This document shows positions 9,207-14,328 of a stretch of DNA of 64,000 bases, piece after piece (positions within the stretch are counted from its first letter, which is position 1; each line of letters opens with the position of its first letter). A model generated the notes under the pieces. The model searched no databases. It had not been told where the DNA came from and saw nothing but the letters and a program-made list of their open reading frames with translations. The translations under genes were made by a program, and so were the position numbers. The DNA is from Escherichia coli. Lineage in GTDB: Bacteria; Pseudomonadota; Gammaproteobacteria; Enterobacterales; Enterobacteriaceae. The stretch is from NCBI RefSeq assembly GCF_022846255.1, contig NZ_AP025682.1. The stretch is one strand, 5' to 3'.

Positions 9207-10775
9207 TTAGCGTGCCGGCTGAGTAGTCGTGGAAGACTGCTCAAAGTGATAGCGACCGGTTTTCAGGCTGCTTGGGCCGAGGCGTGCAAACTTGAACATT
9301 AAGAACAATTCTGCCACCAGGAACAGGGTATACAGGCCGCAAATCAGCACCATTGAGAAGATGAGATCGCCTGCGGTCAGTGACGAGTTCGCCACAGCTG
9401 TCGGCAGCACTTCACCGATAGCCCACGGTTGGCGGCCATATTCAGCCACGAACCAGCCCGCTTCTACAGCAATCCACGGCAGCGGAATACCGTACAGCGC
9501 GGCGCGCAGCAGCCATTTTTTCTCGCCAATGCGGTTGCGGATGACACTCCAGAAAGAGAGCGCAATGATTGCCAGCAGCAGGAAGCCACACGCCACCATG
9601 ATACGGAACGCGAAGTACAGCGGCGCTACACGCGGAATGGAGTCTTTGGTTGCCTGTTGAATCTGAGCTTCAGTCGCATCAGCCACGTTTGGCGTATAGC
9701 GTTTCAGCAGCAGACCGTAACCGAGATCTTTCTTCATGCTATTGAACTGGTCACGAACGGCCTGGTCGGTAGAACCAGAACGCAGTTGTTCGAGCAGAGA
9801 GTACGCCTTCATCCCGTTACGAATGCGTTCTTCATGCTGCACCATCAGTTCTTTCAGGCCGATAACTGGAGTATCCACGGAACGCGTTGCAATGATGCCC
9901 AGCGCGTAAGGGATCTGGATCGCAAATTTGTTCGTCTCCTCTTCCTGATCAGGAATGCCGAACAGAGTAAAGGCAGCAGGTGCAGGTTGCGTTTCCCACT
10001 CGGCTTCGATAGCAGCCAGTTTGGTTTTCTGCACGTCGCCCATTTCGTAACCGGATTCATCACCCAGAACAATAACAGACAGAACGGCAGCCATACCGAA
10101 GCTGGCAGCGATAGCAAAGGAGCGTTTAGCGAAGGCGAAGTCACGACCTTTCAGCATATACCATGCGCTGATACCGAGGATGAACATCGCGCCAGTCACA
10201 TAACCAGAAGCTACGGTGTGAACGAATTTCACCTGAGCAACCGGGTTAAGCACCAGCTCGGAGAAGCTCACCATCTCCATACGCATAGTTTCAAAGTTGA
10301 AATCGGACGCGATTGGGTTTTGCATCCAGCCGTTTGCAACCAGAATCCACAGTGCGGACAGGTTTGAACCGAGCGCCACCAGCCAGGTGACACACATATG
10401 CTGAACTTTACCCAGACGATCCCAACCGAAGAAGAACAGACCTACAAAGGTGGATTCGAGGAAGAAGGCCATCAGACCTTCGATTGCCAGCGGCGCACCG
10501 AAGATATCCCCTACATAGTGGGAATAGTAAGACCAGTTAGTCCCGAACTGGAACTCCATGGTCAGACCGGTAGCCACACCCAGAGCAAAGTTGATACCAA
10601 ACAACTTGCCCCAGAACTTGGTCATATCTTTATAAATCTGTTTGCCGGAAAGGACGTAGACCGTTTCCATAATGGCCAGCAGGAACGCCATACCGAGCGT
10701 CAGTGGCACAAAAAGGAAGTGGTACATCGCGGTCAAGGCAAACTGTAAGCGCGACAGTTCGACTATATCTAACAT
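9207..10775 (-). CDS. cydA: Cytochrome bd-I ubiquinol oxidase subunit I
   Basis: Translation [20 protein letters not shown]...; start taken at second Met of track ORF (522 aa). Confidence 0.95.
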
Positions 10776-11450
10776 CATGACTCCTTGCTCATCGCATGAA
10801 GACTCCGAGAGTGAACCCCGTTAGAAAGGGTCACACGCATGCCCCAATACAAAATTATTTGCTCGCCTCTATCGTTGCCATTTCATCAAAAGAGGAAAAG
10901 ACAATGATAAAAAAGTTACAAATGTGTTAATGAATAAACCAAATTGATCCCGTAATTATATTACGCCGCAAAATCCTTACAATAAACAGGTTTTTATTGA
11001 GCAAATTTGCATTTTTCGACAGTGATCAATTTATAGCGAAATTGTCACGATCTCACCAATTTGATCTACAACAATTTATCGTGTTTTGCAGATTTTTTTC
11101 AAGAATTAAAAATTGATTTATATCAAAATCAACCACATATGTTAATTATGTGTGAATCATGAGCCACTGGTAACTTTATTGTTAATTTATTGTAACAAAA
11201 CAGCACGGTAAATTACCCACATGGAAATATATAGATAAAAAACCAGTATTTTATTTAACAAAGCCGCTTTATCGACTTTTTATAATACTAATTAGTTAGA
11301 GTAGCTACTTTATTGCCATTTTACATAACATATTTTTATCAACGTTAATTGATTGTTGTCTTTATGAGCAACGTACTGTAAATCCGTCACTTATTGTTTC
11401 ATTGGTAATAATCACAAGAAGAAATAGATACCTTAGGTATAGTCAGATGG
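10776..11450. promoter_or_regulatory. AT-rich region upstream of cydA; probably includes the cydAB promoter/regulatory region, extent uncertain
   Basis: Non-coding AT-rich DNA immediately 5' of cydA; cydAB is known to have a long complex upstream control region. Confidence 0.4.
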
Positions 11451-12103
11451 AACAAGGATTTTTAAAATAAAATATATATGGTATTAATATTTCCCGATCT
11501 GTATTCAATGATTCGCTCAAAGATTGAAAATCAAGAGAAATTGTTATAGCAGTGATACGAAACAACAAAACGGAATGATTGCCAGCCGTTAGAAAACACC
11601 GGACACTCTCGTGTAAAAAGCTACCCTGTCTATGGATATAGCGATATCCACTCATCAAGCGTGGACTGAATGATATTCAGCTCCATATGGGCGGAAACCT
11701 GGAGGATAAATACGATTTCGCCGTTGGAATCAAGGTTGTTCTGCAATATCTACCAGACTGCTTCAATTTATCTGTTTTGGCAGTGCAATAATCTTAATTT
11801 AACTATTTGAAGATGATGATATTGTCAGATGCCAGAAATTTAGTAATCTGGAGAACCGTGTCTATGATCACTAAATATTAAAGTAATAGTCGATAATTCA
11901 GTAGCACATCGGGTAATATAACGTATTGATACATAATCATATTAAAAAATTCGTGATTAAATAACATAAGAATATGTTTTATTATCATTAAAAAACCTTC
12001 TATTTCCATCATCCTTAAGATAATAAAACAGCGAATGATGGATAACTTGACCAGAAAAACAAGCAAGCATATAAAATTAAAAAATATGATTCCACTTTCA
12101 TTT

Positions 12104-13219
12104 TTATAAAATGGCATCGTGAAGAGCGAGTTGATAATGCTGCAATGCATCAGCGTCCTGTCCAGCAGTTTCATAAATTTTGGCAATGTTATAATAGGAG
12201 TTAGCGCGCGTTGTCGCCGCATTTACCCCACTCGCTAACGAGATCGCTTTACGATTTGCCCAAATTGCTTCCGCTATGTTGCCATTTTTCTGATACGCCA
12301 GACCCAGGTTACTAAATGCCTGTCCGTAATTGCCGTCTAATTCTGTTGCCTGTTGGAAGAGTTGAATGGCTTGCTCAAGTTGACCGGTTTTATAAACAGC
12401 TTCACCTTCGCGATTATATTTTCTTGCCAGTTGAGTATCTCCACTGTTTTGCATCGCAGGCGAAGCCGGAGCTGAAGAGTCCGTCGCAGGCATTATCACA
12501 GTGGCTAAATCCCTGACGTCTAATGTGGTGTCGTTAAAATTGGCGCTGGTAACAGAGTTGATATCTTCAAACTCGCCGTTTGGATTGAGTTTAAACACGG
12601 TCCAGATGTTCCCTCGTTTTCCAGCAGGGACACTATAACTACGTACCAGGGAGCTCCCTACATAAACAAACACTCTTGCCTTACTGGCAGAGAGATAATT
12701 ACTGTTGGGCAACCCTTTATTGCTATAGTCCTGCACGGCATAGATGTAACTTTCACCAAAATGCTTTTTGCTGATAGTGACAGTTTCTGGTCCATAGCTA
12801 TCCGTATCATCAACATCCAGATTGGCATCAGTTCCCTCTTTACTATCAAAATAGATATGTCCGCCAGGGAAGATCAAATGCGAATCAAGATCAAAAGGCT
12901 TTTCGCCCCAGCTCAAAACTACACGCATGCCATCCAGATTCGTCATCACCGGACTGATAGCATAAGTCATGCCAGCGCACGGACATTTGACCACCAGATT
13001 GGAATACCCCTCTTTTTTGACGATTAATAGAGCATCTTTATTATCAGCAAATGAAGTCCCCAAACTAATGCTGCCCGAAGTATTTGTGGTTCCAGAAACA
13101 GATTGTGCGCCATTGCGTTGCAGCGTCATCGATGCTCCTTCAATGCGTTTATCTTTCACTGTCGCACTTAAAATATCGATATTTACATCGGCCGCATAAA
13201 CGTCCGAATTTATACCCAT
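12104..13219 (-). CDS. Hypothetical protein, probably exported: N-terminal beta-rich region (PEGA/carboxypeptidase-regulatory-like, then a region with DLDSHL and LDVDDTDSYGPE motifs), low-complexity linker, C-terminal TPR repeats. Possible N-terminal extension to 13267 with no canonical start
   Basis: 371-aa ORF in track; TPR-like helical repeats near C-terminus (AFSNLGLAYQKNGNIAEAI..., YYNIAKIYETAGQDADAL); in-frame upstream codons encode a signal-peptide-like KKKIVLPVALALMGINSDVYA-ADV. Confidence 0.7.
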   Translation of the reverse strand: MGINSDVYAADVNIDILSATVKDKRIEGASMTLQRNGAQSVSGTTNTSGSISLGTSFADNKDALLIVKKEGYSNLVVKCPCAGMTYAISPVMTNLDGMRVVLSWGEKPFDLDSHLIFPGGHIYFDSKEGTDANLDVDDTDSYGPETVTISKKHFGESYIYAVQDYSNKGLPNSNYLSASKARVFVYVGSSLVRSYSVPAGKRGNIWTVFKLNPNGEFEDINSVTSANFNDTTLDVRDLATVIMPATDSSAPASPAMQNSGDTQLARKYNREGEAVYKTGQLEQAIQLFQQATELDGNYGQAFSNLGLAYQKNGNIAEAIWANRKAISLASGVNAATTRANSYYNIAKIYETAGQDADALQHYQLALHDAIL

Positions 13220-13357
13220 CAGGGCCAGAGCAACCGGCAGAACAATTTTCTTCTTGTATAAATGCTTTTACAGAACGGAGAGGGGATATTTTGCCGGGCA
13301 TTATTGCGCAGAAGATGGGAAAAAAGCAGTGGGCAAACTTTTCAGATTAGTGCCCGA

Positions 13358-13458
13358 ATAAAAAAGGCCATCATAAGATGGCCAACCATGTCGAAACCGA
13401 CAGCCCTTCGCCCCTCCTGTAGAGGGAAGCGGCGAGGGCTATTTCTTATTACAGATAT
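13358..13458 (-). ncRNA. sdhX: sucD 3'-UTR, expected position of the 3'-UTR-derived sRNA SdhX (RybD), ending at the sucD terminator
   Basis: Region directly 3' of sucD stop on minus strand, ending in hairpin ggccatc-ataa-gatggcc plus U-run (13358-13383); SdhX is known to derive from the sucD 3'-UTR. The sRNA sequence itself was not checked from memory. Confidence 0.55.
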
Positions 13459-14328
13459 TTATTTCAGAACAGTTTTCAGTGCTTCACCGATATCCGCCAG
13501 GCTGCGAACGGTTTTCACGCCTGCGGCTTCCAGAGCAGCGAATTTCTCATCCGCAGTCCCTTTACCACCGGCAATGATCGCACCTGCGTGACCCATACGT
13601 TTGCCTTTCGGCGCAGTCACACCAGCGATGTAACCCACAACTGGCTTGGTAACGTGCTCCTTGATGTACGCCGCTGCTTCTTCTTCAGCGCTACCGCCGA
13701 TCTCACCGATCATCACGATCGCTTCGGTCTGCGGATCTTTTTCGAACATTTCGAGGATGTCGATAAAGTTAGAACCAGGGATCGGGTCGCCGCCGATACC
13801 GACACAGGTCGACTGACCGAAACCGTAATCCGTGGTCTGTTTAACCGCTTCATAGGTCAGCGTACCGGAACGGGAAACGATACCCACTTTACCCGGTTTG
13901 TGAATGTGACCCGGCTGGATACCGATTTTGCATTCCCCCGGGGTGATAACGCCTGGGCAGTTCGGGCCGATCATACGAACGCCTGCTTCATCCAGTTTCA
14001 CTTTCACCGTCAGCATATCCAGCGTCGGGATGCCTTCAGTGATGGTGATAATCAGTTTGATGCCTGCATCGATAGCTTCCAGAATGGAGTCTTTGCAGAA
14101 CGGTGCTGGTACGTAGATAACAGAGGCGGTAGCGCCAGTAGCAGCAACAGCTTCACGCACGGTGTTGAACACCGGCAGGCCGAGGTGGGTAGTACCGCCT
14201 TTACCTGGGGTTACGCCGCCAACCATTTTAGTGCCGTATGCAATGGCCTGCTCTGAGTGGAAAGTCCCCTGGCTACCGGTAAAGCCCTGGCAGATAACCT
14301 TGGTGTTTTTATCAATTAAAATGGACAT
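13459..14328 (-). CDS. sucD: Succinyl-CoA synthetase alpha subunit
   Basis: 289-aa [48 protein letters not shown]. Confidence 0.95.

Follow-up and report, generated by a model that had tools for sequence, protein, structure and literature searches.

A probably decaying Escherichia coli allele of a conserved exported tetratricopeptide repeat protein and a proposed periplasmic adaptor role for its intact relatives

Between sucD and cydA, a 64,000-nucleotide stretch of Escherichia coli DNA (assembly GCF_022846255.1, contig NZ_AP025682.1; hereafter the window) carries a minus-strand open reading frame (ORF) that encodes two β-sandwich domains followed by tetratricopeptide repeats (TPRs). The locus is probably a decaying allele of a conserved gene, intact members of which would act as periplasmic adaptors; as judged from comparison with intact orthologs, the best-supported conclusion about the window copy is that its capacity to yield a functional, exported protein is gone. 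A sequence-only reading of the window had presented the ORF as an unrecognized exported protein. The ORF is not unrecognized, as the Prokaryotic Genome Annotation Pipeline (PGAP) names the gene in about 1100 complete E. coli genomes (the E. coli 2A and LF82 loci, 98–99% identical to the ORF, bear the name "tetratricopeptide repeat protein"), and JGI labels proteins of the identical family "YfaP (DUF2135 family)". The domains of the family are of known kinds and the gene is already catalogued.

Lesions of the window copy and the state of related alleles

Intact alleles begin with …AAAAAGGATTTATACATGAAGAAAATT…, encoding MKKIVLPVALALLGMNAGAYA followed by AD, which by eye is a Sec signal peptide, and end in …YQLAYTEKNKPSYEEAIARVKTKM. 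Relative to these, the window copy carries three lesions (Table 1) which sequence comparison marks as derived: the Shine-Dalgarno (SD) sequence has changed from AGGA to AGCA, the start codon has changed from ATG to AAG, and 262 bp have been deleted, with loss of the last 22 codons and of the gene's own stem-loop terminator and the addition of LHDAIL in their place. The deletion takes out a conserved C-terminal capping helix (…YTEKNKPSYEEAIARVKTKM) that is present in the intact alleles and conserved in 22 of 26 aligned homologs. The start ATG is kept in ST131-type alleles, in strain MSB1_4I and in Pseudocitrobacter, and a comparison of start regions found GGA…ATG retained by ST131 ZH063, MSB1_4I, Pseudocitrobacter and Yersinia; Pectobacterium and Enterobacter sp. 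start with GTG and retain the signal peptide. Taken together, Pseudocitrobacter, Pectobacterium, Enterobacter, Limnobaculum and Yersinia have either SD-like purines with an ATG or a GTG-initiated signal peptide, and the tail Y..AI.R(M/V)K is conserved in all five. MSB1_4I also shares with the window the context of sucD followed by the ORF-family gene.

The sole ATG left to the window copy lies at codon 17 of the signal peptide. PGAP starts the coding sequence (CDS) of sister strains at this position, within what was formerly the signal peptide, and a start there drops its n-region and one half of its h-region. Upstream of 13219 the frame is open as far as 13267 and is closed by a TAA at 13268–13270, and none of the 16 codons of this extension (KHLYKKKIVLPVALAL) is ATG, GTG or TTG. 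Neither the internal ATG nor the other candidate start is preceded by an SD-like sequence, and from the sucD/sdhX terminator to the ORF a simple scan of the minus strand detected nothing promoter-like. The signal-peptide-like N-terminus of the sequence-only reading is therefore true of the intact alleles, whereas the window holds a start-less remnant of the h- and c-regions behind an AAG codon. Given the SD, start codon and C-terminal lesions, any product would be left without export and without the C-terminal cap. The same reading had named disruption of the ORF as grounds for abandoning its proposal, and for the window copy this is largely what was found, with the SD, the start and the conserved C-terminus all lost by comparison with intact E. 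coli alleles and with four outgroup genera. On the strength of these sequence comparisons, the window copy is most likely a decaying, non-functional pseudogene.

Among complete genomes, the ST131-type intact 5' end is found in 566, the intact 3' end in 565 and the MSB1_4I-type intact start in 6; the window-type 5' region is found in about 540. Each of the six window-type alleles that were inspected (the window, LF82, 2A, O6:K2:H1, Nissle 1917 and 04-00955) has both the SD and start codon changes, and the clade has gathered further lesions: an internal stop interrupts the gene in Nissle 1917 and O6:K2:H1, which PGAP flags as pseudogenes, and most of the gene is lost in AHB10 along with an IS1 insertion.

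Three points speak against decay. PGAP calls the 371-aa ORF a CDS in most strains, a rare start is possible at ATT (codon 8 of the extension) or at CTG, and the pairwise ratio of nonsynonymous to synonymous substitution rates (dN/dS) between the window and intact alleles is about 0.2. The corresponding alternative is that the window allele is functional, being translated from ATG 13219 or a non-canonical codon into a cytoplasmic or weakly exported protein with a modified role, and it is in keeping with the 371 uninterrupted codons and with the retention of the ORF in about 540 genomes. It is nevertheless unlikely, as neither candidate start has an SD and no promoter-like site was seen, the internal ATG leaves out the front of the signal peptide, the product would lack the conserved capping helix, and the clade mates gather stops and IS insertions. 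Divergence older than the lesions, together with a recombination tract, accounts for most of the low dN/dS, which neither proves nor excludes a present function. This tract, at 12833–13081, makes the ORF a mosaic: at about 24 sites it agrees with the ST131-type allele and not with LF82, 2A and O6. Because of it, identity over the ORF reaches at most 97.7% in any database genome; an unusual origin for the excess differences was considered and rejected, as the tract explains them. Only 2 positions within 10700–13500 are private to the window.

Two further observations concern intact alleles. The ST131 allele, with protein accession WP_000725054, has an A7 homopolymer (GAAAAAAAT) in its C-terminal tail near the 3' end of the gene (L004 3652–3658). 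Slips of -1 and +1 at this run would yield the 392-aa (…EKISLLMKKLLHV, 165 contigs) and 382-aa (…EKK) variants that databases contain; these could represent slippage-prone length variation or sequencing error. The MSB1_4I allele (L094 1334–1384) keeps its SD, ATG and full C-terminus, and PGAP starts its CDS at an internal ATG to give 385 aa; this start is probably mis-called, cutting off the signal peptide.

Domain composition and predicted fold

The intact protein of about 390–400 aa comprises a Sec signal peptide, a putative transthyretin (TTR)/CarboxypepD_reg-like domain (domain 1), a TerD-fold domain (domain 2), a flexible linker and three TPRs with a capping helix. Only the TPRs of the window protein are recognized by Pfam (TPR_11, 2.2e-9; TPR_12, 1.6e-7), with one TPR_1 match for each repeat (E = 2.9e-4, 1.3e-3 and 5.4e-3). 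Designed consensus TPR (CTPR) structures match the window protein in PDB sequence searches at E values of 1e-18 to 1e-54, and helix pairs are predicted in this region by AlphaFold2 (AF2), so that the tandem 34-residue helix-turn-helix repeats place it in the TPR clan. The sequence-only reading had seen at least two repeats behind a Ser/Pro/Ala linker; the linker is confirmed and the repeats number three, with the capping or solvating helix replaced by LHDAIL in the window. Outside this region profile searches return little: Pfam on 26 homologs gave TPRs and weak CarboxypepD_reg matches only, NCBIfam gave only sub-threshold TPR families, and PDB sequence searches with the protein and with an N-terminal profile found no match outside the TPRs. 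No match was returned by PADLOC for the window protein, which thus corresponds to no known anti-phage defense component; neither a catalytic motif nor an enzyme family was found for it, as the earlier reading had also stated.

AF2 was run on an intact allele with a 26-sequence alignment, yielding a predicted local distance difference test (pLDDT) score of 87.2 and a predicted template modeling score (pTM) of 0.84 for the protein as a whole; for the N-terminal 223 residues of the window copy the pLDDT was 91.1. The linker is modeled with low confidence, with 10-residue block means of about 51–57 at residues ~241–270 and values below 50 at 260–266. TerD-family structures hold the top Foldseek ranks (probability 1.0), and domain 2 is predicted to adopt the TerD β-sandwich fold. 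Its acidic loops occupy positions equivalent to the Ca2+ loops of TerD in the hhalign trace. Both acidic stretches quoted in the earlier reading (FDLDSHLIFPGGHIYF and ANLDVDDTDSYGPETVTI) are present where it placed them, on the minus strand, which it had left unstated. Near-invariant columns among homologs are CPC at the domain boundary, DLDxH, LDVDD and GPET; conservation is at least 90% for the D, D and H of DLDxH, the LDVDD motif and the E of GPE. Apart from PEGA and pre-peptidase C-terminal domains, which gave no Pfam match and are not among the top structural matches, the structural guesses made from sequence alone were largely right.

Domain 1 may resemble CarboxypepD_reg (PF13620) and transthyretin-like domains such as the CPD TTL domain (5aq0) and the SusC NTE (9hfj), although the window sequence falls below Pfam significance and the family differs from these in its conserved CPC motif at the domain boundary. 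The cysteines of this motif, between the two β-sandwich domains, are the only ones of the mature protein, and some homologs have GPC, GPV or GPF; from sequence, CPC could be a disulfide or a metal site. In the AlphaFold Database the same two-domain module is found on secreted S8 peptidases, SLH proteins and Firmicutes cell-wall-binding proteins, which indicates that the module is extracytoplasmic. A literature search found no paper describing the combination of TTR-like, DUF2135/TerD-like and TPR domains or its coupling to a CE4 deacetylase.

Distribution, neighborhood and a recurrent deacetylase gene

Of 5426 complete E. coli genomes, 1112 carry the ORF by megablast, in every case on the chromosome. 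Carriers include LF82, NRG 857C, NC101, Nissle 1917, ATCC 11775, O6:K2:H1 and ST131 strains, which we take to belong to phylogroup B2. A cluster search with the N-terminal 233 residues against 1.84 billion representatives (50% identity clusters) returned 5504 clusters at E ≤ 1e-3, including 3059 at E ≤ 1e-10. Many of these are full-length proteins of 380–400 aa with the same architecture, full-length homologs being 35–80% identical, and others are very large multidomain proteins with the core domain only, at times in tandem; the full-length homologs and the number of clusters put the ORF far beyond chance. A species scan (one genome per species, a 6-sequence alignment as query, best 80 loci kept) found relatives in at least 422 species-level genomes. 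Pseudomonas predominates among the best 80 loci, which also include Pectobacterium, Yersinia, Enterobacter, Pseudocitrobacter, Methylococcales and Xanthomonadales-type genera; the Pseudocitrobacter relative is 80% identical over the N-terminal region. Acinetobacter and Vibrio homologs were named in the cluster look-up. Database names of the relatives are "TPR protein" or "uncharacterized" throughout, and literature searches with DUF2135, WP accessions, putative CFT073 locus tags and Pfam/InterPro identifiers returned nothing on this gene or its function.

The earlier reading had proposed looking at the neighborhood of homologs, and in other genera this revealed a recurrent partner, absent from Enterobacterales. 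In 24 of 86 loci (28%), a gene of carbohydrate esterase family 4 (CE4) lies directly downstream of the ORF-family gene on the same strand, with a gap of -4 to about +90 nt (L007 7198–8307, L010 6179–7291, L084 2414–3559 and 21 others). The encoded proteins of about 370–380 aa are homologous among loci and consist of a signal peptide, a conserved N-terminal region of about 170 aa without a Pfam match, and a CE4/NodB domain (Polysacc_deac_1, 4e-13); the nearest NCBIfam models, all below cut-off, are peptidoglycan GlcNAc deacetylases, PdaA/PdaB and NodB. Lineages with the pair are Vibrio, Cellvibrionaceae, several of Pseudomonas, Sideroxydans, Methylovulum, Methylococcales and Nitrosomonadales, together with Luteibacter, Dyella, Tahibacter, Xanthomonadales-type genera, Pseudoduganella and Oxalobacteraceae; V. 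xiamenensis and P. chlororaphis are examples. In the P. fluorescens group the ORF-family gene is followed by recQ, by vertical synteny. At L008 the CE4 gene is split into two ORFs, and L069 and L009 each have two ORF-family paralogs in tandem.

In the window, the ORF is flanked by sucD (13459–14328, minus) and cydA (9207–10778, minus). Positions 13360–13500 correspond to the sucD end and sdhX of K-12 at 97.9% identity, the sucD 3' untranslated region at 13360–13458 matching the sdhX sRNA region, and Rfam gave no match at gathering threshold over 10700–13600. The cydA upstream regulatory region (10733–11157) is 82% identical to K-12, far below the flanking coding genes. Between these, 2.2 kb at 11158–13359 stands in place of mngR-mngA-mngB of K-12 (L093 2150–8079). 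The order is sucD-mngRAB, ORF-family gene, cydA in ST131; sucC-sucD, ORF-family gene, cydA in Pectobacterium and Enterobacter sp.; and sucD, ORF-family gene, mngR-mngA-mngB in Pseudocitrobacter. The shared placement after sucD indicates that the site is old in Enterobacterales and that mngRAB moves relative to it. The window arrangement as a mere deletion derivative of that in ST131 is unsupported, as Pectobacterium and Enterobacter share the window order and Pseudocitrobacter has sucD, the ORF-family gene and mngR in succession. All carrier E. coli examined have an AT-rich spacer of about 0.95 kb that separates the ORF from the conserved region upstream of cydA; it holds no convincing ORF, and tblastn found no remnant of the CE4 partner in the spacer of the window or of ST131. 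GC content is about 44% in the ORF region, 52–55% in the flanking genes and 28–38% in the spacer (300-nt windows). The Enterobacterales neighbors point to no function, and the tol-pal/cyd surroundings to which the earlier reading had drawn attention are not a conserved functional context.

Table 1. Features of the ORF and its surroundings (window coordinates)
Feature	Position	Strand	Remarks
ORF	12104–13219	minus	371 aa from ATG at 13219; stop codon 12104–12106
In-frame remnant of gene 5' end	13220–13267	minus	16 codons, KHLYKKKIVLPVALAL
Former Shine-Dalgarno	13263–13266	minus	now AGCA
Former start codon	13253–13255	minus	now AAG
Domain 1, putative transthyretin-like/CarboxypepD_reg-like β-sandwich	12953–13192	minus
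CPC motif	12977–12985	minus	conserved; within domain 1
Domain 2, predicted TerD-fold β-sandwich related to DUF2135 of YfaP	12545–12934	minus
Acidic-motif stretch FDLDSHLIFPGGHIYF	12848–12895	minus
Acidic-motif stretch ANLDVDDTDSYGPETVTI	12773–12826	minus
Domain 2 acidic motifs	DLDSH 12878–12892; LDVDD 12806–12820; GPET 12782–12793	minus	conserved
Low-confidence linker	12425–12544	minus	includes Ser/Pro/Ala stretch 12440–12490
Three TPRs	12122–12424	minus	Pfam, PDB sequence matches, AF2 helices
Deletion junction and unrelated tail LHDAIL	12107–12129	minus	262-bp deletion; junction ~12125–12129
Intrinsic terminator of sucD/sdhX	13366–13383	minus	between sucD and ORF
AT-rich spacer, non-coding	11158–12103		same segment as ORF; absent from K-12

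A proposed adaptor role and its alternatives

The domain composition and export signals of intact family members, together with the downstream CE4 gene in 24 of 86 loci, suggest a periplasmic adaptor, and the scaffold function put forward in the sequence-only reading is the most reasonable reading for them. The intact protein would be a soluble protein of the periplasm whose TPR module holds a partner, in about one quarter of sampled lineages plausibly the downstream-encoded CE4 (NodB-type) polysaccharide or peptidoglycan deacetylase, and whose tandem β-sandwich module docks, probably via Ca2+, onto an envelope ligand that may be a glycan or another protein. Scaffolds in which a TPR module of the periplasm retains an enzyme that modifies polysaccharides are known from PelB-PelA, PgaA-PgaB, AlgK and BcsC; like the family at 24 of 86 loci, they combine a periplasmic TPR module with genetic coupling to a CE4-type deacetylase, and a TPR-CE4 contact would be analogous to those of PelB-PelA and PgaA-PgaB. 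The scaffolds of this type are either lipoproteins or fusions to outer-membrane porins and lie within large synthase operons, whereas the ORF family consists of small soluble proteins in a two-gene unit with no synthase, and the E. coli copies have no deacetylase nearby.

Several results weigh against this reading. Only 28% of sampled loci show the CE4 association, and no locus of the Enterobacterales or the P. fluorescens group has it; the TPR-CE4 contact and the binding of Ca2+ and of a ligand are steps that we infer. At the level of sequence families, the Pfam DUF2135 model (presumably PF09906) had no match at E ≤ 10 in the window protein or any of the 26 homologs, and the family profile aligned to one TerD sequence (2kxt) in hhalign with a probability of 1.3%, with no Pfam TerD match. 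A bolder form of the proposal would make the intact family a new class of Ca2+-dependent adaptor that brings CE4, or else other envelope enzymes, to peptidoglycan or exopolysaccharide, such that ST131 keeps envelope properties which the LF82/Nissle/CFT073-type clade has lost; this is a speculation to which we give rather little credence.

The nearest characterized relatives of domain 2 raise another possibility. Domain 2 aligns with the DUF2135 domain of E. coli YfaP in hhalign at 96.3% (E = 1.7e-9, 109 columns), indicating homology at the profile level, and the two share the motifs DLDxH, LDxD and GYGPE. YfaP (b2225) and the P. aeruginosa proteins MagA (PA4492) and MagF (PA4487), which belong to COG4676, are exported to the periplasm as the intact ORF family would be, and their C-terminal domain is the one homologous to domain 2; they differ in having no TPRs and another N-terminal region, and their genes sit in α-2-macroglobulin (yfaS/magD) operons, unlike the ORF with its neighbors sucD and cydA. 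MagA and MagF are non-enzymatic periplasmic subunits that stabilize a multiprotein complex and co-purify with the macroglobulin MagD and with MagB (PMC3735191). Searches of the COG4676 and yfaP literature found only this paper and incidental mentions, and MagA and MagF are the sole experimentally studied relatives of the core domain; they fit an adaptor role and point to no specific ligand. By extension, the DUF2135-like domain could be a subunit of an α-2-macroglobulin-type periplasmic defense complex with the TPRs as a tether. The co-purification and the hhalign match favor such a role; however, no macroglobulin, yfaQ/T/A or mag genes adjoin the ORF-family gene in the 86 loci, the homology is confined to one domain and the Pfam DUF2135 model is silent, making this very improbable.

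That the β-sandwich serves as a Ca2+-dependent stress or tellurite-resistance module, as in TerD proper, is hardly credible: TerD structures (2kxt, Klebsiella TerD; 2qz7, SCO6318; 2qng, SAV2460) are the best structural matches and the acidic loops fall at equivalent positions, but identity to the ORF protein is 14–18%, TerD proteins are cytoplasmic, single-domain and encoded in ter operons whereas the ORF family is exported with no ter neighbors in 86 loci, the canonical motif GDN(R/L)TGEGDGDDE is absent with LDVDDTDSYGPE in its place, and the two-domain module of the family is also carried by secreted S8 peptidases, SLH and cell-wall-binding proteins. As the hhalign relationship is not significant, membership in the TerD family was rejected and similarity of fold alone is kept.

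Returning to the adaptor reading and the probable decay of the window allele, some consequences concern annotation: the 371-aa CDS of about 540 genomes starts within a signal peptide and should probably carry a pseudogene flag, and at least one intact allele (MSB1_4I) has a mis-called start. The family outweighs the window copy in importance, being a conserved exported protein of hundreds of proteobacterial species and of about one fifth of complete E. coli genomes, among them the best-known extra-intestinal and gut-associated lineages (ST131, LF82, Nissle 1917, NC101 and O6:K2:H1). With about half of the carriers intact and about half holding the window-type allele, E. coli offers a natural knock-out comparison, and the recurrent CE4 operon of other genera provides a testable lead toward a small periplasmic glycan-modification module.

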